The position numbers and the translations under genes are program-made. The notes below the pieces were generated by a model, which was not told where the DNA came from, did not search any database, and worked only from the letters and a program-made list of their open reading frames with translations. From NCBI GenBank assembly GCA_964505005.1, contig CAZDFQ010000001.1, positions 114,458 through 178,457 of the forward strand: a stretch of DNA of 64,000 nt. Reading direction: 5' to 3'. Positions 8,022 to 42,406 of this stretch are shown piece by piece; the first letter of the stretch is position 1, and every line of letters starts with the position of its first letter. Source of the stretch: an uncultured Candidatus Saccharibacteria bacterium (GTDB taxonomy: Bacteria; Patescibacteriota; Minisyncoccia; UBA6257; 2-01-FULL-56-20).

Positions 8022-8023
8022 TT

Positions 8024-9078: not shown

Positions 9079-9120
9079 AATAGAATTTAGAATGTAGAAG
9101 TGTGAAAAAGATGTTTTTTA

Positions 9121-9147: not shown

Positions 9148-9155
9148 ATAATTTC

Positions 9156-10988: not shown

Positions 10989-10994
10989 GTTCTA

Positions 10995-11110: not shown

Positions 11111-11155
11111 TTTTTTAATTTTTAGCGCTATGTTACGGCCGCTGTTACACAGTTA

Positions 11156-11177
11156 GTGTTATGCTATAGCATAACAC
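11156..11177. repeat. Family C palindrome GTGTTATGC-N4-GCATAACAC (copy 1 of 4), 6 nt 3' of the paralog 2 stop.
   Basis: Other copies at 44425-44452, 48394-48420 and 48594-48614. The loop nucleotides vary while the arms are conserved. Confidence 0.7.
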
Positions 11178-11182
11178 TTTAT

Positions 11183-12958
11183 TCAGATAACTTCTGCGTT
11201 GTAGCATTCCCGGCAATACACGATTTCCGACCGGTCCGGAGCAAAAGCTGCTTCAAATTCATTAGAGCAATGACTGGCGCCGTGAAAATGTTGCGCCTGA
11301 TTTTTATACACGCTGTTTTCGCTTCCTTGTCCCAGGCACTGACATTTTCTTTTCCAGAAGCGCAAAGGATGCGGCTGGTCCTTTAATTTTTCCCGCAAGC
11401 GGCAGAAAAAACACTGGCGCGGCAAAGGGACATTCATCTGCCTGGAGAATGAAAGTTCCTGCGGAATAATGCGAAAGGCGCGGCCGCAGGTCTTACAGCC
11501 GATGGTTTCTTTCAGAATCGACTCGGAAACATCGCGAATGTGGTCAGGAATATCGTCCGCTGGCAAAGTAATCTGATATTCTGTCGGTTCAACATCTTTC
11601 CATTCGTAACCCTGGGCTAAGGCCTCTTCTTTGCTTAAAGGAAAATAAACAAAGGCAAATGATTCGTTGTAAGCCAATGGCGAAAGCTCGAGTGGGAAAA
11701 ATTCGCCGTAGCGATATACCCTCCCTCGCTTATCTTTATAGGGAGCGGCTGACATTTGCTGGATAATCCTCGGCACAAGTTTTTCGTATTCCTCTTTGGA
11801 ATATTGTTTGTTAAGAATGCAATACTGCTTTTCCCGGAGCGAAACGCAGCCGAAAATATTGCTGCAGGCGTCTATACACATCCAGCCATACTGCACCTCG
11901 CGAAGATTGTCATAACAATTGGCCGTAAATTTTATGTTAAAAATATTCAAGCCGCTCATCGCCACTTCGTAAATCAATTCCGCCACGTCTCCCCAGGCAA
12001 AATAATCATAGGCGCTGGCTACCGGCTTTGTTTCAACAAATGAAACATAGCGAGAATCTTCTACGCCTTTCACCTCGAAGCATTTCTGGCAGTTTTTTGA
12101 TTCAAACACCAAAAGCCCGGTTACGTCCTTGGAAAATTCCTGCCAAGATGTTTTCACCGGATATTTCAGCCAGTGTTTTCTGGCTTCTTCTTTAAGCCAA
12201 GTATAAATTTTATACGAGCCGAGGTCCCATTCTTTGAGTTTTTCAAAATATTCCTCCTTAAGATAGGGCTTATTAAAAATGTAGTATTGTTTGTTCCGAA
12301 GATTGGCTGAAGCAAAACAATTCTGGCAGCCCCAGCACTGCCAGAGAAAAGCCGAGTTGTTCGATTCGTTGGTCCAGTTAAGATTCACGCCGCCATAATC
12401 TTTCCAGCAATGAAACAAGTCATAAGAATATTCGCAGGAATCGGCAAAAACAATGTTATAGCAATCTTTTGAACGATTGACAAAATGGCCATAAGCGCAG
12501 TTCTCAATGTAATCCGCTTCAATAAGAAGATAGCAGTTTTTGCCGTGGCCAAAGAGGTTGTTATACGGCGAAGTCGGCGAAAAAACCGGATAATCGGTCC
12601 ACAGCCCAAGGTGCGGTACGCGCCTCATCAGCTCGTCGAGCTGTTCGAAAAACGGTCTGGAAAAATCGTAGTCGCGGCCGTATTCCAGCGGGTCCCAATT
12701 GTCAGACCACCAACAAGAAGTGCAGTAAACCGTGTAGGGCTTATCTGCCGAGTAAACTGAAATGAATTCTTTACCGCACAAATCGCATTTTCTTTTGTAT
12801 AAACTGGCGAAACTGACCTGAGCCATCCGCCGCTGGAGCCGGCACTCCGGACACCAAGTCGGCGCCGGGACTTTTATTTTCTCGTAGAATAAAAAATCCT
12901 CGGGTTCTATTACGAACTCCGATTTGCAATTCTGACAAACCTTCTTTTCTGACTGCAT
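11183..12958 (-). CDS. Cysteine-rich paralog 2 (591 aa), which retains an extra CxxC...CxxC pair near the N-terminus.
   Basis: It has the same N- and C-terminal motifs as paralog 1. A second ribbon, CDLCGKEF...YCTSCWWSDNW, is present where paralog 1 has lost the cysteines. Confidence 0.7.
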   Translation of the reverse strand: MQSEKKVCQNCKSEFVIEPEDFLFYEKIKVPAPTWCPECRLQRRMAQVSFASLYKRKCDLCGKEFISVYSADKPYTVYCTSCWWSDNWDPLEYGRDYDFSRPFFEQLDELMRRVPHLGLWTDYPVFSPTSPYNNLFGHGKNCYLLIEADYIENCAYGHFVNRSKDCYNIVFADSCEYSYDLFHCWKDYGGVNLNWTNESNNSAFLWQCWGCQNCFASANLRNKQYYIFNKPYLKEEYFEKLKEWDLGSYKIYTWLKEEARKHWLKYPVKTSWQEFSKDVTGLLVFESKNCQKCFEVKGVEDSRYVSFVETKPVASAYDYFAWGDVAELIYEVAMSGLNIFNIKFTANCYDNLREVQYGWMCIDACSNIFGCVSLREKQYCILNKQYSKEEYEKLVPRIIQQMSAAPYKDKRGRVYRYGEFFPLELSPLAYNESFAFVYFPLSKEEALAQGYEWKDVEPTEYQITLPADDIPDHIRDVSESILKETIGCKTCGRAFRIIPQELSFSRQMNVPLPRQCFFCRLREKLKDQPHPLRFWKRKCQCLGQGSENSVYKNQAQHFHGASHCSNEFEAAFAPDRSEIVYCRECYNAEVI

Positions 12959-12975
12959 ATTTTTGAAGTCCCTTA

Positions 12976-13000
12976 TTCTACCATTCGCGCGAATTAGAGA
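12976..13000. repeat. Family B palindrome copy (degenerate), 3' of the paralog 3 stop.
   Basis: TTCTACCATTCGCGCGAATTAGAGA. Confidence 0.55.
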
Positions 13001-13012
13001 TAGAGAAAGATA

Positions 13013-14842
13013 TTATACAACTTCAGCATTATAGCAGGCTTCGCAATAAACGATTTCCGGCCTGTCGGGAGCGTAAGATGTTTCAAATTCATTGGGGCAA
13101 TGGTTAGAGCCATGGAAATGCTTAACAGCATTCTGGTAGATTATTTCTTGGTTCTCGCCGGCCCGCGATGAGCTTGTCGAACCTGCGCATTGGCATTTCC
13201 TGTGCCAGAGTTTGAGAGGATTCCTTTGTTTAATTCTCTGATAATGGCGGCAGTTGGGGCAGAAACGGGGCAAAGGCAGATTCATTTTCCGGTAAAACTG
13301 AAGTTCCTGAGGGATAATTTTGAAGGCCGTGGTGCAGCCGGCCGCTTCTTGTTCAAGAGTCAAACCCTTTCGGGCACCGGCGTTGCTGGCGCATTCGATT
13401 ATTTCATCAAGCATGGAATCCTCGACATCCTTTATGCGGTCTGGCAGTTGGTCGGCGGTCATCGTTATTTTGTAATTTCTTTCTTCGGGTTCTTTCCAGC
13501 CGTAGCCCTGTTTCTCTGCTTCTTCTTTAGTCAGAAGAAAATATTCCTGGGCAATGGTTTCGTTATAGGCGAATGGAGAGAGTTCCGGAGGGAAGAATTC
13601 GCCATACTTATAGATTCTGCCTTTTTTATCTATATAAGGCAGAGAATCCATCTGCTCAATGAGGCGAGGCAATAATTTCTCGTATTCTTCTTTAGGGTAT
13701 TGCTTGTTCAGAATGCAGTAGGATTTGTTGCGGAGGCCGATGCAACCGAAAAGATTAGAAGAATTATGACAATTGAAACTATAAAATACATTGTATGAAC
13801 CATAGACAACGCTTGTGCTGATAAGATGATAGCTCTGTCTGTCTCCTGAATCGAAAACTTCGTACATCAATGAACCTAACCCCGCTCCGGGGCCGGCATC
13901 ATATGAATCTTTCAACTGGACGCCTGCCCATTCAAGAAATTTACAATCTTCGGCTCCCTGAGCAATATCAAAACAAAAATGGCAATTTTTAGAATTTTCA
14001 ATATGGTCGCCGGTGACATCTACTGACCTCTGGATAGAGGCATAGCGATGGATGGATTTTTTTAATTCTTCCCGAAAAAGCGCTCTGAATTTTAAAAGGT
14101 TCGAATATCTTCCTAAATCGAATTTCTCGATTTTTTTAAGATATTCCTCCTTTGAATATTGCTGATTAAAAATGCAATAGGATTTATTTCTGAGATTCAC
14201 ACAACCGAAGCAATTTGAACAATTTTTGCAATCGTAAAGAAAAAAGGAATCGGTGCAATTGCCGCAGTCATTACTAAAAAACAACCGATAGGCCTTTTCA
14301 CAAAAGAGGTCATCGTAGCAAAGTTGCGATTCAATGACAGTATAAAGGTCCATTGAGTCCTTAACATAGAGAATACGATTTGAATACATTGTATTCTCGA
14401 TAAAACCCGAGGCAGAAATAAGGTAGCAGTCCTTACTGTCCATAGCCACATTACAATACTCGCTGTTGATGGCATTAGTGTTAGAAAGAGCAATCAGCGG
14501 GAATTTATCCCGAAGCATCCGGAATTGCCGGAAAAATGGCTGAGAAAAATCGTAATCGCAACCGTAATCGAGCGGATTCCACTTATCCGACCACCAATAT
14601 TTTTGGTCGTAAACCGTAAGTTTTTTTTCGGGAGAATAAATAGAAATAATATCATTACCGAAAGCGTCCTTCCGTTTGTAAAGCATCCTTTCGTTCCTGA
14701 AAGCCATTCTCCTTTTAAGTCGGCACTCCGGACACCAAGTCGGCGCCGGAACCTTGATTTTTTCGTAGAACAGAAAATCCGAAGTGTCTATAGCGAATTC
14801 GCTCTGACAATTTTGACAAACTCTTTTTTCAGAAATAGCCAT
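13013..14842 (-). CDS. Cysteine-rich paralog 3. The ATG at 14840-14842 (MAISEKRVCQNC...) is the likely start; the longest ORF extends to 14878 via a TTG.
   Basis: Conserved family motifs are present. The start was chosen by homology with the paralogs, which all begin M-x4-6-CQNC. Confidence 0.65.
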   Translation of the reverse strand: MAISEKRVCQNCQSEFAIDTSDFLFYEKIKVPAPTWCPECRLKRRMAFRNERMLYKRKDAFGNDIISIYSPEKKLTVYDQKYWWSDKWNPLDYGCDYDFSQPFFRQFRMLRDKFPLIALSNTNAINSEYCNVAMDSKDCYLISASGFIENTMYSNRILYVKDSMDLYTVIESQLCYDDLFCEKAYRLFFSNDCGNCTDSFFLYDCKNCSNCFGCVNLRNKSYCIFNQQYSKEEYLKKIEKFDLGRYSNLLKFRALFREELKKSIHRYASIQRSVDVTGDHIENSKNCHFCFDIAQGAEDCKFLEWAGVQLKDSYDAGPGAGLGSLMYEVFDSGDRQSYHLISTSVVYGSYNVFYSFNCHNSSNLFGCIGLRNKSYCILNKQYPKEEYEKLLPRLIEQMDSLPYIDKKGRIYKYGEFFPPELSPFAYNETIAQEYFLLTKEEAEKQGYGWKEPEERNYKITMTADQLPDRIKDVEDSMLDEIIECASNAGARKGLTLEQEAAGCTTAFKIIPQELQFYRKMNLPLPRFCPNCRHYQRIKQRNPLKLWHRKCQCAGSTSSSRAGENQEIIYQNAVKHFHGSNHCPNEFETSYAPDRPEIVYCEACYNAEVV

Positions 14843-23411: not shown

Positions 23412-24350
23412 CTATTTTCTTTTGCTTTTAAGCAATTTCCAGGCCTCGGGATTATTAACTCTGAAGTTAATCTTACTAGAAGAAGTATTTGAATCATCCG
23501 GTAAATATTCTCGTTTATTATTTTTGCTCTGATACAAAATCTTAAATTCGGCATCCTTAAACAAAGAATTATTGATGCCTAATTTATTTTTAATAATATC
23601 TAAGTATTGTTCATTTATTTCATAGCCGATAGAACTTCTGCCTAAAGAAGCCGCGGCCTTCGTAGTTGTCCCGCTCCCCAAAAAGGGATCAAGCACTGTT
23701 TCGCCAACAAAGCTAAACATTTTAATAATCCGCCTTGGTAGTTCTTCTGGAAACATAGCAATATGACCATTTTGTTTTACGCCGGCGAAATTCCAATGGC
23801 CCGTGAAATATTTCCTCCATTCTTCTTTGGTTAGCTTTGATTTTTCTTTAATTTCATCGCTTATATTATTTGGAGATTTTCCTAACTTTTTAAAAATTAA
23901 AATAAATTCATAGTCAATTTCTATCAAGCCGTTGCGAGGATAAGGAAAAGAACCCATTACTGAAGCGCCCCCAGTGGTATTCATTGTTGTTTTTTTCTGC
24001 CAAATAATTGCCCCCATATAATCAAACCCTATTGATTCGCAAAACCTAATTATCTCTTCGCGAATAGGGATTATTTTGTAGCGTCCGTAAGTAACTGCCC
24101 GGGCAAACTGGTCTCCGATGTTAATTATTAAACGGCAACCTGGATAAAGAACGCGATAGCATCCCTGCCACACTTTATTCAAATTCTCTATGTACCCCTC
24201 ATAAGTATCATTAAAACCAATCTGTTCAATTGAGCCGTAATCTTTCAACTGCCAATATGGCGGCGAAGTAACAACAAGGTGAGCTGATTCATCCTTGAGC
24301 TCTGTCATACCGCGCGAATCTCCAACTATTATTTTATGTGTGGTTTTCAT
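23412..24350 (-). CDS. Beta-class DNA methyltransferase (N6-adenine or N4-cytosine; ParB-less).
   Basis: Motif IV SPPY (VVTSPPYWQ) is N-terminal and motif I DPFLGSGTT is C-terminal, which is the beta-class order. Confidence 0.8.
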   Translation of the reverse strand: MKTTHKIIVGDSRGMTELKDESAHLVVTSPPYWQLKDYGSIEQIGFNDTYEGYIENLNKVWQGCYRVLYPGCRLIINIGDQFARAVTYGRYKIIPIREEIIRFCESIGFDYMGAIIWQKKTTMNTTGGASVMGSFPYPRNGLIEIDYEFILIFKKLGKSPNNISDEIKEKSKLTKEEWRKYFTGHWNFAGVKQNGHIAMFPEELPRRIIKMFSFVGETVLDPFLGSGTTTKAAASLGRSSIGYEINEQYLDIIKNKLGINNSLFKDAEFKILYQSKNNKREYLPDDSNTSSSKINFRVNNPEAWKLLKSKRK

Positions 24351-24370
24351 AATTTATATGCTTTCATCAA

Positions 24371-25054
24371 TTATAGCACGTCATCGGCATAAATTTCTAG
24401 GCCGGATTTCGTCTTTTTATAAAAGATAATTTTTACTCCAATTTCTTCTCTAAGAGCATTCTTAGTCTTGTATGTTATCGGTTTTATTGAGACCGGCGTC
24501 TTATCTATAAAACCATCAATTCCTCTGGATTCTTCTTCTGGAGTCGCTAAACGATAAGAGGTATCTTTCAAATTGGCAATCTTTTTCAAAACCGCCTCTT
24601 GGAACCGTAAACCAACAAATGTTTTTTCTAATACTAAATCCTCTACCCAGATTTCAACCATATCTTTGTCTATTCTACCTATTGCCTCTTTTAATTTCTC
24701 AATCATATCATTAATTTTTCCAGAGGCATTTTTAATAGCACTTGGATAATTTTCAAGGCACCATTCTTTCCACGCTCCGTAAGTTTTAGCTTTAGATGAT
24801 TTTACAAGTTCGGAAAGCTGCCCAACAACCCTAGGTCGCGTTCCTTGAGAATTTTGATTAGCAAGATTAATAATTTGGGTTGTATATTTCGGGAATTCTT
24901 TAATCTCACCTATCAGCTCACGAATTAATTCTTCGTTTTTTATTTTAATCATCATGTTTTTACTCCCTCTATCTCTTATAAATCGCTTCTTTGATTTCCT
25001 GCCGGGCTGCCTTAATTCTTTATAATTATGGGCCGTTTTAAGGTCAGAGGACAA
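24371..25054 (-). CDS. Putative type II restriction endonuclease partner of the methyltransferase.
   Basis: It lies 20 nt upstream in the same orientation as the MTase and shares the AT-rich island. A possible PD...(D/S)xK-like segment is GIDGFIDKTPVSIKP. Apart from that possible segment, the call rests on context. Confidence 0.35.
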   Translation of the reverse strand: MSSDLKTAHNYKELRQPGRKSKKRFIRDRGSKNMMIKIKNEELIRELIGEIKEFPKYTTQIINLANQNSQGTRPRVVGQLSELVKSSKAKTYGAWKEWCLENYPSAIKNASGKINDMIEKLKEAIGRIDKDMVEIWVEDLVLEKTFVGLRFQEAVLKKIANLKDTSYRLATPEEESRGIDGFIDKTPVSIKPITYKTKNALREEIGVKIIFYKKTKSGLEIYADDVL

Positions 25055-25705: not shown

Positions 25706-28078
25706 TTATTCCCTTAACCGCTTGTAAATTTCCTCCTCGATTTCTTGGCGGTCCCTGCCGTATTTGGCGCGGGACTGGTTTTTCAGCCGGTCGGCCAGCT
25801 GGCGGTCGCCGCGCTCGAGCGCTAGGGTTTCGATGTTGAACGGCTTGGTGGTTTGGCCATTGACGAGAATTTTCACATAGGCATTGAAATTGTCGATGTT
25901 CAATAAATCGTTCTGGCTGAAAACCGGCTCGAACTGTTTGATCAGAAACTCGGCATCCTGGGCCCCGACCCGGAAAACAATCTGCGAGCCGACATTGCCG
26001 AAAACCGCGTCCCGGATTTTTTCCGTCAGCTGGGCGATGAACTGATGCGCCATCGTCAAGTTCAGGCGATACTTGCGCGCCTCGGAAAGAATCGTGGAAA
26101 TGGAATCAGTGGTGAAATTCTGGAACTCGTCAATGTAGAGATTGAAGTCGCGGCGCTTTTCGACTTCGGGAATGTCCACGCGCGAGAGCGCGGCCATCAA
26201 GAGTTTGCCGCTGAAAATCATCCCCAGCAGGCCGGCATTGATGTCGCCGATCCGGCCCTTGGAAAGATTGACTAAAAGAATCTTGCCTTCATCAATCACA
26301 TAACGGAAATTGAAAGCGGATTTGGGCTGGCCGATGACTGGCCGCATATAATCGTTGGCGATGAAATTGTTGAATTTGGAAGTGATGTAGGGCGTCATAT
26401 TGGCAAGCGAGGCCTCGCCGCCGGCTTTAACCGCTTCTTTCTCCCAGAAATCAATGACCACCGGGTTTTGGATTCTTTCCAGTTTGCGAAGACGATATTC
26501 GCTGTCCGTGAAAATCCGCGGCACTTCAATAAGCGTTGCCGGCTCGTTAGGCATATCTTCCATCAACAGCAGCAAAGCATTCCGCATATACTGTTCGAAC
26601 ATCGGCCCCATGGTTTCCGGCGGAAAAAGCTTGTTGAAAATCCCCTGCATTTCGTTGACGATGAAAGTTTTTTCTTCGGGTCGGTTGAAAGAATATTCGA
26701 GCATATTCAAGCCGAGCGGCCGGAAAATGTCCGCGGTGTCGAAATAAATCACATCTTCGAGGCGATTTGACGGAATATAGCCGAGAGCGTTCTCGGCCAA
26801 ATCGCCGTGCGGGTCAATGATGGCCACGCCTTTACCTTTGGTAATGTCGTCAATAATCATATTGCCAAGCAAGGTGGATTTGCCGGTGCCGGTCTGGCCA
26901 ATGATGTAAATATGCCGGCGGCGGTCATCGTCGGTTATCCGGACCTCGCGGTATTCCCCGCGGAAGCGGCTGCGGCCGATTAAAACACCGGCGGCCGGCA
27001 GATTGGACGGCGGCTCGGATTCTTTGGCTTTGAGCCATTTGATGCGCGGAGTTTCCGTGGAAGAAATCGGCAGATGATAAAGGCTCGCCAGTTCTTCGGA
27101 ATTCAAAATCATGGTTTCCCGGGAACTGAAATTCCGGAAACTCAATTCATAAGCCAGTCGTTGAACATTCCTTGATTTGACAACTTTGAAGTCGTTTCGC
27201 ATCGGGCTGGCGAACTGGCTGAAGCTAGCAATCAGGCCGTCGAGAATGTCGTTCGCCTGGAACGGGGTGCCGCCCGAAGCGGCCAGCCGGACATTGACCT
27301 CGAAAAGCGGCTTAGAAATTTTGGCGGTCAGGGCCTTAACTGCTTCCTCGTCAACGACTTTTTCTTCTTTCTTTTTTTCTTCTTTTTCGGGCGCGAGGGC
27401 TTCTTTCAGTTCCTCGGGCTGGAAAGGAAATTCCTGGCCGAGCACGCGCTTCAAGGGCTTGCCAACTTTCAGGCTTCTGATGTAGGCCTCGATTTTCTTT
27501 TTCTTGTCTTTGTCAGCCGGCTTGACGACGAGCTGGAGCATTGCGCCTTCGCCGACTTCGTTTATTTTGGAAAAAGAACCGGCAATCGCCGCAAAAGTGT
27601 CCAAGCCGATTTCCTGGTAAGTCCTGATGGGCAAAGCGTAACTTTCCGACTGCAAAAGATAAGCAGCCGCCGCGGCTCCCTGAGAATTAAAAATGTTGTA
27701 ATCGTCGGCCGCCCGCTCCACCGAAGCCGCCCGCCACAACCCCTGAATCTGTTTAACAGCCACTTCGCTCAAAACCCGCGGCACCGCCAGATAAAAATGA
27801 ATTTCCTCGCCGATGTGCGGCACCGCCACTTCCAGAACAAAGGGCTTTTTGAGTGCCGCCAAATTGCTCAATAATTGTTCGGTTAAATTTATCTCCTGCT
27901 TGAAATCTTTTTGGGCTGAACCAGCAGCCGGCGCTTCTTTGGGGATTTTTATGAGGAATAAAACCAGGCCAAGGGATTCCCTGAGCCGGCGCTTTTGCCA
28001 GAAACGAAAAATCAAATAAACCGCGGCGGCCAAGGCGCCTATGAATAAAACAACGGCTAAAAATATCAGAAAGGGCAT
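25706..28078 (-). CDS. Membrane-anchored P-loop ATPase of the FtsK/HerA/TraG-VirD4 superfamily (T4SS coupling-protein-like).
   Basis: N-terminal TM helix, Walker A GQTGTGKST, Walker B-like LYIDEFQNF, 790 aa. Confidence 0.45.
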   Translation of the reverse strand: MPFLIFLAVVLFIGALAAAVYLIFRFWQKRRLRESLGLVLFLIKIPKEAPAAGSAQKDFKQEINLTEQLLSNLAALKKPFVLEVAVPHIGEEIHFYLAVPRVLSEVAVKQIQGLWRAASVERAADDYNIFNSQGAAAAAYLLQSESYALPIRTYQEIGLDTFAAIAGSFSKINEVGEGAMLQLVVKPADKDKKKKIEAYIRSLKVGKPLKRVLGQEFPFQPEELKEALAPEKEEKKKEEKVVDEEAVKALTAKISKPLFEVNVRLAASGGTPFQANDILDGLIASFSQFASPMRNDFKVVKSRNVQRLAYELSFRNFSSRETMILNSEELASLYHLPISSTETPRIKWLKAKESEPPSNLPAAGVLIGRSRFRGEYREVRITDDDRRRHIYIIGQTGTGKSTLLGNMIIDDITKGKGVAIIDPHGDLAENALGYIPSNRLEDVIYFDTADIFRPLGLNMLEYSFNRPEEKTFIVNEMQGIFNKLFPPETMGPMFEQYMRNALLLLMEDMPNEPATLIEVPRIFTDSEYRLRKLERIQNPVVIDFWEKEAVKAGGEASLANMTPYITSKFNNFIANDYMRPVIGQPKSAFNFRYVIDEGKILLVNLSKGRIGDINAGLLGMIFSGKLLMAALSRVDIPEVEKRRDFNLYIDEFQNFTTDSISTILSEARKYRLNLTMAHQFIAQLTEKIRDAVFGNVGSQIVFRVGAQDAEFLIKQFEPVFSQNDLLNIDNFNAYVKILVNGQTTKPFNIETLALERGDRQLADRLKNQSRAKYGRDRQEIEEEIYKRLRE

Positions 28079-33197: not shown

Positions 33198-33346
33198 CCA
33201 CGGATATAAGACTGATAGCCACGGATCACGGATCCGTGATTAGTGACTATTCGCCCGCTATCAGGGGCAATTAGTGTTTTCGTCTCGATTTAAATTCTGC
33301 CTGCCGAGCCGCCCTCGCGCTTGATATATTTCGGGGGAAGAAAAAG

Positions 33347-33379
33347 GCGGCTAACAAACATTGTGGCTTGTTAGCCGCC
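33347..33379. terminator. Hairpin between the convergent murF-like and cysS genes (GGCGGCTAACAA-N9-TTGTTAGCCGCC). Likely a bidirectional terminator.
   Basis: 12-bp stem located between convergent stop codons. Confidence 0.5.
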
Positions 33380-33436
33380 CTATGTTGTAAGGCTGTCTCG
33401 CATGGCGGTTATCTCCAGTAGATTTTAACTGAAAAC

Positions 33437-34843
33437 CTATAACCCCCTGCGGACAACCTTTGGACCGGCAGGCGCGTCCCTGACCTCGTACCCTTTTTCG
33501 AGTATCTCCTGACGCAAGCGGTCTGACTCTTTCCACTGCCTGTTTCTTCTCAATGATTCCCGATCTCGAACAAGCACCATGACTTCCTCCGGGATTTCTC
33601 CGGCAGAAGAATGCGCAAGTCCCAGATTGAGAACCCTATCGAATTCCAGGAGAGTAGCCCTCTTCTTTTCTGGAGTCAAAGAAGAGTCAGCGACTTCCCA
33701 CAACAGTGCTATCGCTTGAGGAGTGTTGAGGTCGTTGTTTACTCGAATCTTGAACTCCTTGAGAAGTTTTTCGTCGGGGATGGCATGGCCGTTCCCCCAA
33801 CTCAAAACTTTTTCGCGCAGAGACATCAGGGCTTTTTGAGCCCCCTTAATGCCTCGCCAAGTGAAGTTCAAGCTTGAGCGGTAGTGAGAAGTCAGAGCAA
33901 GATAGCGAAAGGCGAGTGGGTCGTAACCTCTCTGAACGACGTCTTTCAGGGTTACGAAATTTCCCTCGCTTTTTGCCATCTTTTTACCTTCGCTTGTCAG
34001 GAAAGCAACGTGCAACCAGTAGCGGGCGAACTGTTTGCCGGTGGCCGCTTCCGACTGTGCTATCTCGTTGGTGTGGTGAATCGGGATGTGATCGACGCCG
34101 CCCGTGTGGATGTCGATTGTTTCTCCCAAATACTTCATCGCCATGGCACTGCACTCGAGGTGCCATCCCGGAAATCCAACTCCCCAGGGGCTCGGCCATT
34201 CCATCTGCCTTTTTTCGCTCTTGGGAGAGAATTTCCACAGAGCGAAATCGGTCGGGTTCTTTTTCCCCCCGAGGTCAACTCGAGCTCCCGGCTCGATGCC
34301 CTCGACATCTAACCGAGCGAGGTAGCCGTAATTTGGCAGCCGACTGGTGTCGAAATAGACTCCATCGGAAGTCAAATACGTATATCCCGCTTTCTCCAAC
34401 CGCCGGACCAAAGCTATCTGATCATCAATATGATCAGTCGCCTTGCTCCAAACTGTCGGCGGCTCTACGCCAAGGTCGAGCAGATTCTGCTTGAAGATCT
34501 CCGTGTAGAATTCGGCGATCTCAAACGCAGACCGCTTCTGCTTGCGAGCGCTTAGTTCAATCTTGTCTTCGCCGGAGTCAGCGTCAGAGGTCAAGTGCCC
34601 TACGTCCGTGATGTTGATTACGTGCCGCACTTGGTATCCATTGAGCTCAAACATTTTGCGGAGCGTGTCCGCAAAAATGTAAGCCCGGAGATTCCCAATG
34701 TGCGGATAATCATACACCGTTGGTCCGCAGGTGTATACCTTGACCTTGCCTTGCTCAAGTGGGATGAACTGCCTTTTTTCTCTTTGATAAGTATCAAAGA
34801 GATAGATGGGGCTATTCATGTGTTTTCTCCTTTCTTGTTTCAC
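33437..34843 (-). CDS. cysS: Cysteinyl-tRNA synthetase.
   Basis: HIGN (HIGH-type) motif, KMAKSEGN (KMSKS-type), zinc-ligand cysteines; 468 aa. Confidence 0.85.
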   Translation of the reverse strand: MKQERRKHMNSPIYLFDTYQREKRQFIPLEQGKVKVYTCGPTVYDYPHIGNLRAYIFADTLRKMFELNGYQVRHVINITDVGHLTSDADSGEDKIELSARKQKRSAFEIAEFYTEIFKQNLLDLGVEPPTVWSKATDHIDDQIALVRRLEKAGYTYLTSDGVYFDTSRLPNYGYLARLDVEGIEPGARVDLGGKKNPTDFALWKFSPKSEKRQMEWPSPWGVGFPGWHLECSAMAMKYLGETIDIHTGGVDHIPIHHTNEIAQSEAATGKQFARYWLHVAFLTSEGKKMAKSEGNFVTLKDVVQRGYDPLAFRYLALTSHYRSSLNFTWRGIKGAQKALMSLREKVLSWGNGHAIPDEKLLKEFKIRVNNDLNTPQAIALLWEVADSSLTPEKKRATLLEFDRVLNLGLAHSSAGEIPEEVMVLVRDRESLRRNRQWKESDRLRQEILEKGYEVRDAPAGPKVVRRGL

Positions 34844-34942
34844 GATTATGATGGATAGCCCTTTGCGTAAAACTCACAAGGAACTATCTATCTTATATCA
34901 CCTTTTTGTATTGAAGTCAATAGTAAAAGATATGTATAAATT

Positions 34943-35827
34943 CTAGCTATTTATTAGCCGATGAGCAATGAGTTTTACTTTGCTCTTGAAAGATTCAAGC
35001 TGTTTCGGTTTGTCAATTAACATTTTTTCAAAAAGCCCGGTTATATCTTTCACCCCCTTGCAACCTTCTAACTCCTCATCAAATTTATCAATTGTGATAT
35101 TGCTTAATTCTGGAAAAATCGCCTCCAATAAACCTGTCTTTTTAATCTTTGTAATGAATGAACGAACATCTGCGGACTTAACAATCGCCTTGAATATATT
35201 GAAATAAGAATGTTCTTTGGCATAAACGATATGGAAGCACTCTTTATGCTCCCACGATTTTATTCTTTTGGATAACGACTTTGAAAACAAGAAAAGTTTC
35301 TTGTTTTTACGAAAATCAATATTAAAACGGGCGCAAAGATTTAAAAGCCGCGACGCCAGTATAAACGGATTTTCTCCATCAACCGAAATAACCGGCATTA
35401 GTTCTTTCTTCTTTAAAGCATTTATGGAATCGTACGGATCGTATATTTTCCCGGACGGAAAGTGCCAAAAAATACTTTCCCAATTAAAATGTCCCAGATA
35501 TTTAATATCTTTGACTATAGCTATGTCCAAATGGATCGGCTTTCTAACGGTGACTATTTGAAATGCCTTATTAAGCTTCAAGTAGTAAGGCCCTTTCCTG
35601 ATGATAGAGAAACTGTTGGCCCCCAGCGTCCTTAGAACAGATTTAAACTTCCTCTCGCCGCCTATAATCGCCAAGTCATAGTCGTTTATCTTAAAGTTAA
35701 CCCCCAAACTTTTCGCTACCTCTTTGTATGTTATACTGCCGCCTAGCCAAAATCCAGTTAAACCGCTTTTCTTTGATATATGTTCAAGAATTAGAAATTG
35801 CCTCCTATTGACATGCGAATTTGTCAT
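34943..35827 (-). CDS. Hypothetical protein with a possible Pol-beta-type nucleotidyltransferase motif (GGS...DYD); AT-rich island gene.
   Basis: LGGSITY...(17 aa)...DYDLAII, with a later HLDIAIV acidic residue. Overlaps the decarboxylase gene by 4 nt. GC is far lower than in flanking genes. Confidence 0.3.
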   Translation of the reverse strand: MTNSHVNRRQFLILEHISKKSGLTGFWLGGSITYKEVAKSLGVNFKINDYDLAIIGGERKFKSVLRTLGANSFSIIRKGPYYLKLNKAFQIVTVRKPIHLDIAIVKDIKYLGHFNWESIFWHFPSGKIYDPYDSINALKKKELMPVISVDGENPFILASRLLNLCARFNIDFRKNKKLFLFSKSLSKRIKSWEHKECFHIVYAKEHSYFNIFKAIVKSADVRSFITKIKKTGLLEAIFPELSNITIDKFDEELEGCKGVKDITGLFEKMLIDKPKQLESFKSKVKLIAHRLINS

Positions 35828-37485
35828 CTCTTTTTGGAAACACGAAAATCAGACAATTGCTTTTTTAACTTTCCGACTTCCTCTTCTACACTACTGAAAT
35901 CCATATGCGGAGAAACAAAGCAATATTTTAATCCCGAAATGGATTTCCCTGTTTTTGTCTTGTAGAAACTCTTTGAGAAAGAGCAACCCAGACGTTTAAT
36001 GTTTCCATCGCCTTTAAGACAGAATTCATAAAAAGATTTTACATCTTCGTTAATTCGATCCAATAAATCACTATCCCCATCAGTGAGTTCCAGAAATTCT
36101 TTCCAAGTCATTTTTTTATTGCTAGGAGATATTAGTATCATGGTATTGAATCCTAAGGCATGAGGGTTACCGACCAAAAAATCGTCCTCGGCGGAAATTA
36201 AATCTCTAAAGACTTTAGTATAAAAAATTTGATTCGCAAGAAATCTCCTGAAACCGTTTTTGCCCATAGATAATAGAGAGCCTACAGCTGAAAGTGCTTC
36301 GCCGGCGGAACGAGAAGTTTCAAGAGTGATATCCGAAGGATCTTCTAACGACCAGTCAGTGCCGAGATGATGTGTATCAATACCTCTTTCTTTTTTAGAG
36401 AGCAGAAGTAATTCACTCCTATTGTTTGAAACAAAAAGACCGCATGGGGTTGGGCAACCGCCCATTCCCTTGTGGAAATCTACACCCCACGAGTCAGCTC
36501 TTCTTAATTGATATACTCTCTCAAATTGTTTCTTTATGATTGGTAATATTTCCGGTGGGATTTTTAGAGGATTCAATTCAAAGTTATATCCGTTAAACAT
36601 TAACCAAATCCATCCGATAACAGAATCAACGTGAATGTGCGGGGTGAAAGAAAGTTTATATTCTCTGACGAGTTTATCTCTCAATTCTACGAATGCGTTA
36701 ATATCGTCAACAGCAAAATCATAGAACGGACCTCCATTTATCTGGAATCCTGCGATAATCCCGCCCTTTTCGATTATAGATCTTGCTTTTACTTCCGCGT
36801 CTTCAACAATGGATCTGCTTTCTTCATCTGACTCAATTTGCACTAAACGATCAATGCCTACACCAAGCCAGTCACCAACCGTCTTATGTGAAAAATGAGC
36901 TTTTTCGGTAATCATTATGTATAAGTTAGAGGGAACTCCAATCTTTCCGGCGTTAGGAACCGCTTTATTGATAGAAAGTTTCATAGCATACATATTTGAA
37001 GCGGTGCCACCAAACGAAAAGAGTGCTTTGACTTTATCTTGAGGTAGGCCTATAAGATCAGCCATCATTTCGGAAATAACTTTTTCCGTAAGCAAACAAT
37101 TTCCGGCAAAATCGGTGCTTATATTATGTATGTTCATTTCTTGCCCTAAACTCAAAAGAGTTTGGGCTACCGTATTAACCGGTGCGCAAATGTTATATTG
37201 TAGTTTCGGGCTGCGCCAGTTAGGCGCACCCGGGAAAAATCCTCCAATCGCCATAAATATTATCTTTTCAGGCGACATTCCTTCTTCGGGAATTTTATTT
37301 GGGATTTTCTCAAAATTACCTTTCTGTTTTAGAAGCCATGGCTTGTTAGAGCTTTTGAAAATTTTCTGTAACTTTTTTAAGCCGAGAGCTAAAAACCTTA
37401 ACGAAGTTTTTGCCCCGATTGAGGTTGGAAATAAAATTCTTAGACGCCTCCTATAAAAATTTGGCCATGGGTGTTTATCTTTCAT
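35824..37485 (-). CDS. Group II pyridoxal-phosphate-dependent decarboxylase (glutamate/tyrosine decarboxylase / SPL-like).
   Basis: GGTASNMYA motif; PLP-lysine motif SWGVDFHKGMGG; 553 aa; AT-rich. Confidence 0.6.
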   Translation of the reverse strand: MKDKHPWPNFYRRRLRILFPTSIGAKTSLRFLALGLKKLQKIFKSSNKPWLLKQKGNFEKIPNKIPEEGMSPEKIIFMAIGGFFPGAPNWRSPKLQYNICAPVNTVAQTLLSLGQEMNIHNISTDFAGNCLLTEKVISEMMADLIGLPQDKVKALFSFGGTASNMYAMKLSINKAVPNAGKIGVPSNLYIMITEKAHFSHKTVGDWLGVGIDRLVQIESDEESRSIVEDAEVKARSIIEKGGIIAGFQINGGPFYDFAVDDINAFVELRDKLVREYKLSFTPHIHVDSVIGWIWLMFNGYNFELNPLKIPPEILPIIKKQFERVYQLRRADSWGVDFHKGMGGCPTPCGLFVSNNRSELLLLSKKERGIDTHHLGTDWSLEDPSDITLETSRSAGEALSAVGSLLSMGKNGFRRFLANQIFYTKVFRDLISAEDDFLVGNPHALGFNTMILISPSNKKMTWKEFLELTDGDSDLLDRINEDVKSFYEFCLKGDGNIKRLGCSFSKSFYKTKTGKSISGLKYCFVSPHMDFSSVEEEVGKLKKQLSDFRVSKKR

Positions 37486-37535
37486 AGGTTTTAAGAGATT
37501 TTAAAAGATTTTAAGAGAATTCTATGGCTCTAAGG

Positions 37536-38678
37536 TCAAGACACGAATTTTCCCACAATGTCGGTTTCATATTCCAAACGCCGGCTTTTGGCTTCAGCCG
37601 CGTCAACTACGGCTTGTTCGATTAAATCGGAAATTTGCTGTTTGAAAGAAATACCGCTCGCTTCCCAGAGATAAAAAGCCATTGAGCCGGGAATGGGATT
37701 AATTTCGGTAAGATAAAGTTTTTTATCATTGGTGTACATAAAATCAATCCGCACCATTCCCTTGCACCGGCAGGCCACAAAGGCCTTTTTGGCCGATTCC
37801 TGCAAACGCTTTTTCAGGTCATCGTCTATTTTGGCCGGTAATTCCCTTTGCAAAGACGCCATGCCGGCGCCGGTTTTTTTGCCGCCCCGCTGGTATTTAT
37901 CGGCAAAACTCAAGATTTCATCTTTGGAAAAAGGCCGCTCGATTTCGCTCGCTTCTACTTTGCCGCCAACGACCCTGACGCTGCAGTTGTATTCGACAAA
38001 CGAAGAAAGATATTTTTCCACCAGAATTTCATTGTCAATAAAAGCTGCTTCCAGCAAAAATTTTTCCAGCTCCACTTCGCTGCGGCTGATTTTAATGCCG
38101 ATGCTTGACCCCAGATGAACCGGCTTGATGATGGCCGGTAAACCGAGTTTTTGAATGATTTTTTTGCTGGAGTTTTCCACATCTTCTTTAATTTCAAAAG
38201 AAAATAATCTCGAGCCGGGCGCGGTCTCAATCCCGGCTTCGCTGACGACCTGTTTCGTCAAATACTTGTTCATCGTCAACACTGACGCTTCCTGATTGGG
38301 AGAAGTGAAAGGAATGCCGATGGTTTCAAAAAGCCCCTGGAGAGGGCCGCTTTCTCCCTGGCCGCCGTGGAAAGCGAAATAAGCCGCATAAGGATAAATT
38401 TTTTTAGGCAACCAGCGGCCGGTTTTCATAAAACCGCCGCGGGCATCCAAGCCGAACACTACCGGCTTCCGGGAAGAGCGGAAAAAGCCGCTCCGATTTT
38501 TAAGCTGCGGCAGATAAAGAATCTCGCCTTTTTTGGCCAGATAAATCACATAAGGCTCGTAAAGGCCGGTGTCAATATTTTCAAGAACCTGCAGACCGGT
38601 AATGACTGAAACCTCGTGCTCGGAAGACACGCCGCCGAAAGCGATGATAACGGGTTTAACCATAAGATAATCAGACAT
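37536..38678 (-). CDS. ddl: D-alanine--D-alanine ligase (ATP-grasp).
   Basis: N-terminal IIAFGGVSSEHEVSVITG; ATP-grasp C-terminal domain; 380 aa. Confidence 0.7.
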   Translation of the reverse strand: MSDYLMVKPVIIAFGGVSSEHEVSVITGLQVLENIDTGLYEPYVIYLAKKGEILYLPQLKNRSGFFRSSRKPVVFGLDARGGFMKTGRWLPKKIYPYAAYFAFHGGQGESGPLQGLFETIGIPFTSPNQEASVLTMNKYLTKQVVSEAGIETAPGSRLFSFEIKEDVENSSKKIIQKLGLPAIIKPVHLGSSIGIKISRSEVELEKFLLEAAFIDNEILVEKYLSSFVEYNCSVRVVGGKVEASEIERPFSKDEILSFADKYQRGGKKTGAGMASLQRELPAKIDDDLKKRLQESAKKAFVACRCKGMVRIDFMYTNDKKLYLTEINPIPGSMAFYLWEASGISFKQQISDLIEQAVVDAAEAKSRRLEYETDIVGKFVS

Positions 38679-38710: not shown

Positions 38711-40489
38711 TTAGACCACTTCGATATTATAGCATTTCTCACAATAAACAATCTCCGGCCTTTCCGGCGCGTAAGCCGTCTCAAATTCATTCGGACAATG
38801 ATTAACGCCGTGAAAATGGCTGGTTTGATTTTGATAAACCGCATTCTCTGATTGCTCGCCCGCACACTGACATTTCCGATGCCACAGCTGTAATGGGTTC
38901 AACCACTTCAGCCGTTCTTCGTGCCGGCAGTTCGGACAAAGACGAGGTAGAGGGAGGTTCATTATTTTATAAAATTGAACTTCTGCTTGCGTAATTTTAA
39001 ATGCCGAAGTGCACTGATGTTCACACCCGCTCTTATGCAAACAACCAATGACTTCCTCGGTTAGTTCATCAGGAATATCTCGGACGTTATCTGGCAGTTT
39101 TTCAGCCAGTAAACTGATGCGATAATTCTTCTCTTCATAATCTTTCCATGGGAACCCCTCATCAATAGTCTCTTTTTTGTTAAGCGGATAATACAATTGC
39201 GCAACTGTTTCATTATAAGCAAAAGGAGAAAACTCTGGCGGAAAAAATTCTCCAAAGCGATATTCTAATCCTCGAGCACCGCGATAGGGTATCTCTATCA
39301 TTTGTCGTTTAATTCCTGAAACAAGACGCTCATATTCGCTTTCAGAATACTGCTTATTAAAAATGCAGTATGATTTTTGTCGCAGGCTGATACAGCCGAA
39401 AACATCATGGCAGTTATCTATATACTCGGAATAACATACATTATGACCAGTCCAACAACGATTGGTAAACGTTACGCGGTAAACTGAAAGGGCAATGTTT
39501 AAATCTTCATATAAAAGCTCGGCGTTTTCTCCGGCAGTATCCACATCATACACATCGTGGATATTATTCAAAATATGAAGCGAATATTTACAATTCTCCG
39601 CCTGATAGGCAAAAAAGCAATGCCGGCAGTTTCTAACGTCAGTCATATAATTGCCCGTTGAATTAACTCCGTTAATAATATCAACAAAACGCCGCGGTTG
39701 GGTTAGATAAAAAGCTTCTACTTTTTTTGCCGCTTTTTCAATCCCGGTTCGGGTTATCAAGTTGAAACTGTTTAAAGTTTCCTCATACTCTTCTTTAGTA
39801 AGTTGTTTATTAAAAATGCAATATTTTTTGTGACGAATATTAATGCAACCGAAACAATTGTGGCAATCAAAGCAATATTTTAAAAACCAGCTCTCGCTGC
39901 AGTTGTATATGGCGGGGTAACTATAACGCACCTTGAACGAATCGAAAGCGGCATTGGTCTCATAGCAGAGTTCTACGCGAGTGCCATAAGCATTATCCAC
40001 ACTATCTTTGCAGTGTTGCATCCAATAGCCGTGCTGAAGATTTTCGTTATAGGAACTCTCTACAAGAAAGTAGCAATTTTTATTATTGGTTGACAAATGA
40101 GAGTAATGAGTATTTAGGCTGTTGCGATTTATGAGAGCGATTCTCGGCACTTTATCTGACAGCTTTTTCCACTGCTCGAAAAACGGTTTTGAGAAATCAT
40201 ATTCCTGGCCGTAAAAAAGAGGGTCCCAGTGGTCTGACCAGTAGCATTCTTGACAATAAATCGGAAAGGGAGCTGAGACGGAATAAATTGAGATAACGTC
40301 TTTTTTGCAAAGCCCGCATTGGCGGCGATAAAAATTCCGCTCATTGCGAAAAACAGCGCGCCTCGCTGTTCGGCACTCCGGGCACCAAGTGGGCGGCGGG
40401 ACGCGGAGGCGATCGTAGAAATTAAAGTCATCCGACTCAATCGTGAACCGGTTCTTACAGTTCTGGCAAGTTTTTGTTTCAGGGGTCAT
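38711..40489 (-). CDS. Cysteine-rich paralog 4 (592 aa) of the family at 9.1-14.9 kb.
   Basis: N-terminal CQNCKNRFTIESDDFNFYDRLRVPPPTWCPECR and C-terminal ...LPLPRLCPNCR...HFHGVNHCPNEFETAYAPERPEIVYCEKCYN. Confidence 0.7.
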   Translation of the reverse strand: MTPETKTCQNCKNRFTIESDDFNFYDRLRVPPPTWCPECRTARRAVFRNERNFYRRQCGLCKKDVISIYSVSAPFPIYCQECYWSDHWDPLFYGQEYDFSKPFFEQWKKLSDKVPRIALINRNSLNTHYSHLSTNNKNCYFLVESSYNENLQHGYWMQHCKDSVDNAYGTRVELCYETNAAFDSFKVRYSYPAIYNCSESWFLKYCFDCHNCFGCINIRHKKYCIFNKQLTKEEYEETLNSFNLITRTGIEKAAKKVEAFYLTQPRRFVDIINGVNSTGNYMTDVRNCRHCFFAYQAENCKYSLHILNNIHDVYDVDTAGENAELLYEDLNIALSVYRVTFTNRCWTGHNVCYSEYIDNCHDVFGCISLRQKSYCIFNKQYSESEYERLVSGIKRQMIEIPYRGARGLEYRFGEFFPPEFSPFAYNETVAQLYYPLNKKETIDEGFPWKDYEEKNYRISLLAEKLPDNVRDIPDELTEEVIGCLHKSGCEHQCTSAFKITQAEVQFYKIMNLPLPRLCPNCRHEERLKWLNPLQLWHRKCQCAGEQSENAVYQNQTSHFHGVNHCPNEFETAYAPERPEIVYCEKCYNIEVV

Positions 40490-41324: not shown

Positions 41325-41390
41325 CTTCTTCTTATTTCTTATTTCTTATTTCTCATTTCTCATTTCTTATTTCTTATTTCTTATTTCTTT
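41325..41390. repeat. Tandem octamer repeat (TTCTTATT/TTCTCATT, about 8 units) overlapping the last codons and stop of the galT-like gene.
   Basis: Periodic 8-nt units are readable directly. Confidence 0.7.
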
Positions 41391-42406
41391 AACATCTTCG
41401 CCGCTTCATTGGGGTCAACGACATTTATTTCCACGCCGGTACTGAGTTCGAAACCAGCTGGAATGGAAATTTTCGGCAGAATTTCAATGTGCCAGTGGTA
41501 ATGTCTGTAGGCCGATTGATATTTTAACGGCGCGGTATGGATGAAAAAATTCAAATCCGGGTCGCGAAGATTTTTCCTGATTTTCCGGAGCGTCAGCTGC
41601 AAAATGGAAACAACCGGCTGAAGTTGAGCAGCCGGCGTCTTTTCGAAATACGACTGGTGTTTCAAAGGAAAAACTCTGATTTCAAATGGCTGGCGGGAAA
41701 CAAATGGCGCAATCGCCACGGCAAAAGAATTTTTGGCAATTATCCGTTTTTTGTTTTTCTCTTCGAATCTGAGCATCTCGCAATGAACGCAGCGCCGGTG
41801 TTTTTTGAAATAATGGTGCGAACCGGTGAGCGAATGCTGGACATCGGGTGGAATAATCGGCAAGGTTAGCATCTGATAATGAGGATGAGAAAGCGAAGCG
41901 CCGGCGCTTCCCCCGTAGTTGAAAAAAGTGGAAGTATAGGCGAAACATTTATCTTTGGAAAGTCGGCGGTAGCGACTCTGAATCATTTTGAAAGCCTCGG
42001 TTGCTTCTTCGAATTTCAAATCAGGGAGGTTGCGTTCATGGTCTCTGGTAATTACCAGTTCATGGTTTCCAATCCCGCTTAAAATTTCGTAGGGTCCCCG
42101 AGTGAAAGACGAAGCGCAGACCTCCCGATGGATGAGGGCCGGATATTTGTTGGGGATAACGGCGATGCGCCAGCTCCGACGCTTGCGGTCGGAGTCCCGA
42201 CCAGCGGCGTCGGGATTCTTCTCTTTAGGATATATATCAATCGGCGGCCAATTACCTGATTTTTCCAAATCTTCAAAAGGGCAAGTTGATGGCGGCGATA
42301 TCGGCCGTTTTTTCTTTTTGGGCAAAAGGCCATGCGGCCGCTTGGCCCGCTCCGGCGCCAGAATTATCCAGTCGCCGGAAATCAAATCTTGTCGAAATTC
42401 AGACAT
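41381..42406 (-). CDS. Galactose-1-phosphate uridylyltransferase-like (GalT/HIT-like nucleotidyltransferase).
   Basis: HPHYQ (HxHxQ) active-site motif; N-terminal Cys/His metal-site remnants; ~340 aa. Confidence 0.55.
   Translation of the reverse strand: MSEFRQDLISGDWIILAPERAKRPHGLLPKKKKRPISPPSTCPFEDLEKSGNWPPIDIYPKEKNPDAAGRDSDRKRRSWRIAVIPNKYPALIHREVCASSFTRGPYEILSGIGNHELVITRDHERNLPDLKFEEATEAFKMIQSRYRRLSKDKCFAYTSTFFNYGGSAGASLSHPHYQMLTLPIIPPDVQHSLTGSHHYFKKHRRCVHCEMLRFEEKNKKRIIAKNSFAVAIAPFVSRQPFEIRVFPLKHQSYFEKTPAAQLQPVVSILQLTLRKIRKNLRDPDLNFFIHTAPLKYQSAYRHYHWHIEILPKISIPAGFELSTGVEINVVDPNEAAKMLKK

Follow-up and report, generated by a model that had tools for sequence, protein, structure and literature searches.

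A conserved decarboxylase-like and truncated nucleotidyltransferase-like gene pair beside cysteinyl- and methionyl-tRNA synthetase genes

A 64,000-nucleotide stretch from an uncultured Candidatus Saccharibacteria bacterium (GCA_964505005.1, contig CAZDFQ010000001.1, positions 114,458 to 178,457; hereafter the window) contains two overlapping genes on its minus strand, located between ddl and the cysteinyl-tRNA synthetase (CysRS) gene cysS. The upstream gene, DEC (35824-37485), is a 553-residue open reading frame encoding a homologue of the group II pyridoxal phosphate (PLP)-dependent decarboxylases, and the downstream gene, NTL (34943-35827), encodes a 294-residue nucleotidyltransferase (NTase) homologue. 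DEC and NTL form a conserved pair, which is found across bacteria and archaea at 35-85% identity and is coupled, clade by clade, to the gene for either CysRS or methionyl-tRNA synthetase (MetRS). Our preferred but tentative reading, to which we give somewhat less than an even chance, is that the pair constitutes an accessory small-molecule enzyme module that makes an amine, activates it with a nucleotide, and is genetically coupled to the cognate aminoacyl-tRNA synthetase (aaRS). Both protein superfamilies are already known; the NTL family, the DEC-NTL pairing and the coupling to CysRS or MetRS appear to be new. A full-text literature search found no description of the pair, its fusions, or a cluster of a decarboxylase, an NTase and an aaRS, and we know of no counterpart to the coupling of CysRS or MetRS to such a pair.

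The two proteins

The initial annotation of the window had placed DEC among the group II PLP-dependent decarboxylases on the basis of the motifs GGTASN and DFHKGMGG. Both motifs are present, and the assignment is borne out by a match to PF00282 (40.5 bits, cutoff 27; E 1.9e-10), which spans positions 7-361 of the 375 in the profile. A set of 22 diverse homologues shows no variation at K339 (in DFHK), D287 (HVDS) and H197 (AHFSH); by motif analogy, these residues are presumed to be the PLP lysine, the aspartate facing the pyridine nitrogen and the histidine stacking on the ring, respectively. In all, more than 60 DEC residues are invariant. The solved structures nearest to DEC are those of DABA decarboxylase (2qma), GAD65/67, GADL1, DesA and CSAD, with which it shares the PF00282 fold and the PLP-binding residues. 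Unlike these enzymes, DEC falls in a clade of its own with an extended conserved N-terminus, and since it scores only 45-82 bits against every solved enzyme, it forms a separate subfamily. DEC is, as judged from its sequence, a divergent group II PLP-dependent decarboxylase homologue, and it is predicted to decarboxylate an amino acid.

For NTL, the initial annotation had noted a GGS-x17-DYD pattern reminiscent of Pol-beta-fold NTases and no other recognisable motif. The pattern is confirmed, with GGS at residues 29-31 and DYD, 17 residues further on, at 49-51. Residues G30, S31, D49 and D51 are invariant across 30 NTL homologues, as is a third acidic residue, D101; in total 28 residues are invariant. 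It is true that no Pfam family matches NTL at threshold, and even the fused relative P0142 reaches only 19.2 bits with PF01743, below the cutoff of 23; yet the motifs of the class II NTases are kept. The structure prediction that had been proposed as a check supports the Pol-beta NTase fold and indicates the subfamily. An AlphaFold2 model based on the 30 homologues has a mean predicted local distance difference test (pLDDT) score of 94.1 and a predicted template modelling (pTM) score of 0.90. Its top Foldseek matches, which are also its only significant structural neighbours, are 3wfq, 3wfr, 3wfp, 3wfo, 3wfs and 3aqm (E 5e-6 to 3wfq, 3wfr, 3wfp and 3aqm; probability 1.0, approximately 275 aligned columns). 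The labels are 'tRNA processing enzyme' / 'Poly A polymerase' for the 3wf entries and 'bacterial protein' for 3aqm; we take 3wfo-3wfs to be the Aquifex aeolicus enzyme and 3aqm to be poly(A) polymerase I (PAP I) of Escherichia coli. In agreement with this, an hhalign comparison aligns NTL residues 115-248 with the bona fide CCA enzyme P0265 (probability 95%, E 3.4e-8) over the region of motifs B, C and D and the FPEL segment, and genuine CCA enzymes are the weakest of the matches to the NTL profile.

NTL thus resembles the class II tRNA nucleotidyltransferases and PAP I (PF01743) in its head and neck fold, in the G-S...DxD residues with a third carboxylate, and in the motif C, motif D and FPEL segments. 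The differences concern the details of the motifs and the overall extent of the chain. Class II enzymes carry the consensus EDxxR in motif D and RDFTxN in motif B. In NTL, the motif D segment reads E152-N153-P154-F-I-L-A-S-R160, that is ENPxxxxSR, where other residues occupy the places of the Asp and the first Arg; motif B has the form HFNWES. The protein ends approximately 50 residues after the FPEL segment and neck, so that the body and tail domains are missing; it measures 294 residues, against 406-436 for the CCA enzymes P0265 and P0262 and 388-463 for the solved class II chains that it matches. Lacking the body and tail that hold the tRNA, NTL is not long enough for a tRNA CCA enzyme. The predicted structure and the motifs identify it instead as a truncated homologue of the class II CCA-adding and poly(A) polymerase-like enzymes, consisting of head and neck only. 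Its partnership with a PLP decarboxylase is likewise a context not seen for CCA enzymes.

Pairing, fusions and the synthetase link

The NTL family is rare, with 42 clusters at 90% identity among 5.8 billion proteins and 109 representatives at 50% identity among 1.84 billion, and it has no curated family model. Its named sources are Liptonbacteria and the Parcubacteria group among the bacteria of the candidate phyla radiation (CPR), Nanoarchaeia, Woesearchaeota and Pacearchaeota among the DPANN archaea, and, further, an Oligoflexia-like 'proteobacterium'. A total of 98 loci were annotated, and pairing was counted over the 61 dereplicated DEC-family loci with at least 1 kb of downstream sequence. 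In 35 of these 61 loci NTL is the next gene after DEC, on the same strand. The other 26 comprise one DEC-NTL fusion, four loci with NTL nearby, five with a MobA-like nucleoside triphosphate (NTP) transferase at the position of NTL, and 16 with neither protein, mostly belonging to one outgroup DEC clade. The two genes overlap, by 4-44 nt, at 30 of 36 junctions. DEC and NTL are fused in P0142, P0241 and L072, NTL is fused to a glycosyltransferase of family GT2 in P0222, P0249 and Solirubrobacter (L015/L104), and to a histidine phosphatase in P0183. Identities of DEC and NTL co-vary across the loci (r = 0.86). The possibility, allowed for in the initial annotation, that the two genes are never found together elsewhere is contradicted by this survey, in which the pair recurs widely, with both overlaps and fusions. 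At one locus (L080) the NTL position is taken by an NTP_transf_2 protein, which is followed by an APH-like kinase. A 293-residue protein encoded after the GT1 gene in the loci with NTP_transf_3 was considered as a hidden NTL and rejected, as it is a GT2 enzyme.

The most consistent neighbour of the pair is an aaRS gene. In the DEC clade of the window the gene order is DEC, NTL, sometimes an S-adenosylmethionine (SAM)-dependent methyltransferase, and CysRS, in all loci with enough flanking sequence and in bacteria and archaea alike; the methyltransferase-like gene is present in eight CysRS-clade loci. A sister clade of DEC, 35-44% identical, adjoins MetRS instead, in the arrangements MetRS-DEC-NTL-GT2, DEC-NTP_transf_3-MetRS-GT1-GT2 and GT4-kinase-GT4-DEC-MetRS, with a 4-nt overlap of DEC and MetRS in the last. 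Among 31 dereplicated loci with large flanks, 21 have an aaRS gene within three to four genes, MetRS in 14 and CysRS in seven, and no other synthetase occurs; the chance of finding a given gene that close is estimated at less than 1% in a genome of about 1,000 genes. The type of aaRS tracks the DEC tree. Residues of DEC in the region that in related decarboxylases lines the substrate pocket differ accordingly between the clades, with NICAP / IHNI..DFAGNCL / FSHK in the CysRS clade and NVGAP / IYNINDGLAGNAL / FSHx in the MetRS clade. The link is seen in different gene orders and on either strand, and on the MetRS side it spans two deeply different enzyme types, the Pyrococcus type and the Aquifex/Thermus type. 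An explanation of the conserved aaRS genes as mere anchors for recombination was rejected, because a protein identity of about 50% can account neither for the bacterial-archaeal cases nor for two unrelated MetRS types.

The synthetase encoded in the window looks like a housekeeping enzyme, as far as can be judged from sequence. It contains the tRNA-synt_1e domain (E 3e-95) together with the CysS_C and DALR_2 anticodon-binding domains, and it keeps all catalytic motifs. The closest homologues are ordinary Paceibacterota and Liptonbacteria enzymes. The initial annotation had treated cysS as a flank sharing the base composition of the window; the native composition stands (G+C content at third codon positions, GC3, 0.60), but the gene is not a mere flank, being the one neighbour conserved with the pair.

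A large version of the cluster is present in Solirubrobacter soli (L104; AUIK01000024.1, GCA_000423665.1, positions 92-14305). Here MetRS is the first gene of a series that continues with NTL-GT2, a methyltransferase, a WbsX-type glycosyltransferase, GT2 and a sulfotransferase. Beside this series lie DEC, a histidine phosphatase, an NTP_transf_3 protein, two sugar epimerases/dehydratases, an APS kinase and a radical SAM/SPASM protein. The linked MetRS scores 418 bits against the P. abyssi enzyme and 154-174 bits against mycobacterial enzymes, and is of the archaeal/eukaryotic type, atypical for Actinobacteria, which suggests an extra, cluster-borne copy.

A scan of the related loci for tRNA genes found none consistently near DEC-NTL. 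The closest relative (L019) has genes for tRNA-Ile(UAU) and tRNA-Cys (12994-13066 and 4067-4139) in a tRNA-rich stretch around its DEC, NTL, methyltransferase and cysS genes. In a DPANN archaeon (L001), cysS is followed at 10389-12120 by genes for a form III-like RuBisCO large subunit and a NUDIX hydrolase. A Patescibacteria relative (L102), in which no DEC-NTL is present there, has two CysRS-like genes 1.2 kb apart, at 7001-8416 (plus strand, 471 residues) and 9653-10912 (minus strand, 419 residues, with DALR_2), separated by a radical-SAM gene.

Proposed function and alternatives

In the proposed module, DEC would convert an amino acid to an amine in a PLP-dependent reaction. The substrate would probably be cysteine or a close three-carbon analogue in the clade of the window, and probably a methionine-like four-carbon amino acid in the sister clade; the clade-specific pairing with CysRS and MetRS suggests such cysteine-like and methionine-like substrates. 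NTL, having kept the metal-binding carboxylates and a remodelled nucleotide pocket and having lost the tRNA-measuring body and tail, would probably use an NTP to nucleotidylate and thereby activate the DEC product, its phosphate ester or its acceptor. In the larger clusters the activated group may then be passed on to glycosyltransferases and transferred onto a glycoconjugate, and the window, with DEC and NTL beside cysS, would represent a minimal version. The pair would be kept by, and probably co-transcribed with, the cognate aaRS gene, the likely reason being that the pathway draws on, competes for or perturbs the same amino-acid pool. The folds, the catalytic residues, the conservation of the pair, its fusions and the tie to an aaRS gene are shown by the analysis, whereas the decarboxylase activity of DEC, the identity of the substrates, the small-molecule acceptor of NTL and the reason for the aaRS link are inferences.

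The idea that the product is nucleotide-activated comes from the company that the pair keeps. Across the loci, the neighbours include GT2, GT4 and GT1 enzymes, APH-like kinases, a carbamoyltransferase, a methyltransferase and a sulfotransferase. These neighbours, together with the glycosyltransferase and phosphatase fusions and the replacement of NTL by a MobA-like cytidylyl/guanylyl-transferase, point to nucleotide activation of an amine-containing small molecule. A role in small-molecule modification, which the initial annotation had raised as one possibility, fits the contexts of the relatives.

Several observations weigh against this proposal. DEC scores low against every characterised decarboxylase, and no invariant Tyr, the catalytic-loop residue that protonates the quinonoid intermediate in group II enzymes, is seen within DEC residues 345-385, a segment in which H372 is nearly invariant and in which the alignment to the solved enzymes is unreliable. 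Class II NTases are not known to nucleotidylate small molecules, and the descent of NTL from tRNA enzymes, combined with an aaRS neighbour, fits an RNA substrate as well. The clade of the window is minimal, comprising DEC, NTL, sometimes the methyltransferase, and CysRS, without a glycosyltransferase or kinase, so that the case for a glycan is taken from loci of the sister clade. A different chemistry, in which a PLP-dependent beta- or gamma-replacement would make Cys or Met from an O-nucleotidylated precursor, was set aside, since the active-site residues of DEC are of the decarboxylase type and the sister loci are full of glycosyltransferases.

Known systems offer partial parallels. Surfaces are decorated with nucleotide-activated phospho-amines in the Lic1 phosphocholine pathway, which consists of the kinase LicA, the cytidylyltransferase LicC and the transferase LicD, and in the ethanolamine-phosphate and phosphoramidate modifications of Campylobacter capsules. 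The sister-clade loci resemble such pathways in combining an amine-forming PLP enzyme, an APH-like kinase, an NTase, glycosyltransferases and a phosphatase. In contrast, NTL has a class II CCA-like fold, such pathways are not known to be tied to aaRS genes, and no Lic-type kinase, NTP_transferase-family cytidylyltransferase or transferase was found within the unit of the window, such genes occurring only in sister-clade loci. In the maturation of microcin C, the adenylyltransferase MccB, the SAM-dependent transferase MccD and the PLP decarboxylase MccE yield an aminoacyl-adenylate mimic that targets an aaRS. The parts list of the pair is similar, with an NTase, a SAM-dependent methyltransferase-like enzyme in the eight CysRS-clade loci, a PLP decarboxylase and an aaRS connection. 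However, all three microcin enzymes have other folds, the DEC-NTL clusters have no precursor peptide or exporter, and the aaRS concerned in the microcin system is the target in other cells rather than being encoded in the cluster. MshC, a CysRS paralogue that acts as a biosynthetic ligase in mycothiol synthesis, likewise ties a CysRS-type enzyme to small-molecule thiol/amine chemistry, but the CysRS of the window, with its anticodon-binding domains and complete catalytic motifs, is housekeeping-like.

A more specific form of the small-molecule proposal, possible but on balance unlikely, is that DEC and NTL form the heart of a so far undescribed pathway coupled to aaRSs, in which Cys-type and Met-type decarboxylases work with a descendant of the CCA enzymes re-tooled for a small molecule, and of which the product either uses the aminoacyl-AMP or aminoacyl-tRNA of Cys or Met or acts on the neighbouring synthetase. 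In that case the presence of the synthetase gene next to the pair, in bacteria and archaea alike, would be accounted for. The pathway would provide the first class II NTase directed at a small molecule and, for symbionts of the CPR and DPANN groups, a new kind of functional tie between aaRSs and the metabolism of secondary products or of the envelope. More generally, NTL presents the scaffold of tRNA CCA addition cut down and recruited to a new context, and the clade-specific link to CysRS and MetRS could reveal a non-translational use of aaRSs or a new class of amino-acid-derived nucleotide conjugates. Because CPR and DPANN genomes are tiny, a conserved accessory module common to both domains probably matters for their life as symbionts, for instance by decorating the surface, by exchanging metabolites or in antagonism. 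S. soli, a named species with a sequenced genome, may lend itself to experiments, provided that a culture can be had.

Among the alternatives to a small-molecule module, a tRNA-directed function survives best, although it appears decidedly unlikely. NTL would then act on RNA, for example at the 3' end, the acceptor stem or a base of tRNA(Cys), or of tRNA(Met) in the sister clade. DEC would supply an amine for hypermodification, and further tRNA modifiers would be found in the neighbouring methyltransferase, MiaB-like, radical-SAM and glycosyltransferase proteins. The homology of NTL to class II tRNA nucleotidyltransferases and the tight, clade-specific link to CysRS and MetRS agree with this view, as do the MiaB-like methylthiotransferase and radical-SAM neighbours in some loci and the fact that GT2 and GT4 enzymes glycosylate queuosine in tRNA. 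On the other hand, NTL does not have the body and tail with which its relatives hold tRNA, the fusions to GT2 and histidine phosphatase and the MobA-like replacement point to phosphorylated small molecules, and the Solirubrobacter cluster, with its WbsX glycosyltransferase, sulfotransferase, APS kinase and sugar epimerases, resembles glycan synthesis. The inconstant presence of tRNA genes nearby and the dispensability of the module in close relatives also count against a tRNA target.

More doubtful still is that the module makes an antimetabolite, that is an amino-acid analogue or aminoacyl-adenylate-like agent directed against the CysRS or MetRS of other cells, such as the hosts of episymbionts, with the adjacent aaRS self-protecting or compensating. 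Genes for translation fidelity have been described within clusters for amino-acid analogues (PMC13149037), and the agreement between aaRS type and DEC clade is as this idea would have it. The MetRS of S. soli, which heads its operon and is of the archaeal/eukaryotic type, is what would be expected of an extra copy, and tailoring enzymes typical of nucleoside and aminoglycoside clusters lie nearby. Yet the CysRS of the window is native and Paceibacterota-like, an 85%-identical CysRS is encoded in a relative without the pair beside it, the clusters have no conserved gene for an exporter or a precursor peptide, and on chemical reasoning a decarboxylated amino acid joined to a nucleotide would be a poor mimic of an aminoacyl-adenylate.

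The suggestion in the initial annotation of a defence-related or signalling cassette, in which the NTase would make a nucleotide signal or modify invading nucleic acid and the decarboxylase would be the effector, is very improbable: all that speaks for it is that Pol-beta NTases occur in defence systems in general and that the pair has the character of an AT-rich island, but the PADLOC-DB 2.0 models match neither protein (E <= 0.1), a tblastn search of 50,697 phage and 72,556 plasmid records with NTL, DEC not having been searched there, found no homologue, and the neighbours are housekeeping or glycan genes rather than defence-type genes, the stable aaRS adjacency being the only recurring feature. 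We give as little credit to the absence of any joint function, that is to unrelated or decaying adjacent genes whose aaRS adjacency is inherited by descent, for which the interrupted DEC copies in several relatives, an NTL remnant without DEC and the co-variation of DEC, NTL and CysRS identities, also expected from shared descent, could be cited, since the stop/start overlaps, the several fusion architectures, the conservation between bacteria and archaea, and the aaRS link, which arises anew in varied gene orders, on both strands and with MetRS genes of two unrelated types, all speak for cooperation, and the invariant residues (28 in NTL, more than 60 in DEC) indicate purifying selection.

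Locus organization, composition and history

On the minus strand the genes are arranged in the order ddl (37536-38678), DEC, NTL and cysS (33437-34843), the two outer genes being assigned by Pfam. As the initial annotation stated, the inner two overlap by 4 nt and are rich in AT. The TGA stop codon of DEC and the ATG start codon of NTL share the tetranucleotide ATGA at 35824-35827 (AGATGACAA), which is consistent with translational coupling. The pair has a GC content of 0.378, compared with 0.449 for the window, at the 2.6th percentile of 2.5-kb segments; the GC3 is 0.34 for DEC (z -2.35) and 0.41 for NTL (z -1.27), and 0.53 for ddl. Only one other stretch in the window is as AT-rich, namely the restriction-modification pair at 23.4-25.1 kb.

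The initial annotation took this composition as a sign of horizontal acquisition. This view is supported in part. The composition is indeed deviant, and DEC-NTL is missing next to cysS in a Paceibacterota relative with an 85%-identical CysRS, but any acquisition does not look recent. Relative to the window, the identities of DEC, NTL and CysRS are 85/67/87% in L019, 64/52/64% in L025 and 62/46/53% in the archaeal L001, and those of DEC and CysRS are correlated over the loci (r = 0.87). Because the three identities fall together, the genes must have a long shared history, and from these comparisons the pair is best regarded as a long-established accessory element and not as a newcomer. A recent block transfer of cysS with the pair was rejected, as the composition of cysS is native and the genes that come nearest to it are ordinary CysRS genes of Paceibacterota. 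Several related DEC copies are disrupted. An extra TTGC unit is present in a short TTGC repeat in L004 (4983-4990), an in-frame TAG in L008 (2090-2092) and L021 is identical in these two independent samples, and frameshifts occur in L022, L034 and L064, one of them at a G6 run; L010 has retained a remnant of NTL (7926-8609) and no DEC. The interrupted copies in the CysRS clade reflect either frequent decay or assembly errors. Taken together, the deviant composition, the close relative without the pair and the disrupted copies indicate that the module is accessory and often lost. No convincing flanking direct repeats were found around the pair as the footprint of a mobile element.

In the spacers between ddl, DEC, NTL and cysS, no terminator-like site was found on the minus strand, so the four genes could form one read-through unit. 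A terminator-like hairpin with a 16-bp stem followed by a T run lies at 33344-33381, just 3' of cysS, and the sole other minus-strand match (35231-35255) is within NTL. The spacer between NTL and cysS (34844-34942) holds the Shine-Dalgarno sequence of cysS and, as read by eye, a sigma-70-like TTGACT-17-TATAAG; the latter is suggestive of a promoter and is to be seen as a candidate only, the consensus promoter scan not having listed it. The true start of cysS is probably the ATG at 34819, which is preferred over the GTG at 34843 in view of the Shine-Dalgarno sequence aaaggag and a CysRS call of 460 residues in L011. The spacer between ddl and DEC (37486-37535) measures 50 nt. Three tandem 10-nt units resembling TTTAAGAGAT (repeat family D1, 37480-37519) are located here, and may be a regulatory site. 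Neither a tRNA(Cys) gene nor an Rfam family was found near the pair in the window.

The second AT-rich island (23412-25054, minus strand) encodes an N6/N4 DNA methylase and a MjaI-like restriction endonuclease, with a GC content of 0.35-0.37 and GC3 z-scores of -2.2 and -3.0. It is probably an acquired restriction-modification cassette, and as such provides an internal reference for the composition of foreign DNA in this genome. A gene for a 790-residue VirD4/TraG/HerA-like ATPase (25706-28078, minus strand) adjoins it. Approximately 4 kb upstream of the pair, a minus-strand gene (41381-42406) encodes a HIT-domain, GalT-like protein of the nucleotide-phosphorylase type (DUF4921), similar to Ap4A phosphorylases, which was not found near other DEC-NTL loci. 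Directly upstream of ddl, at 38711-40489 on the minus strand, lies the gene for a cysteine-rich protein of 592 residues with repeated CxxC zinc-ribbon-like motifs, a weak match to zf_Tbcl only, and a somewhat low GC3 of 0.42. A homologue of this protein, 38% identical, is encoded two genes upstream of CysRS-DEC in L029.

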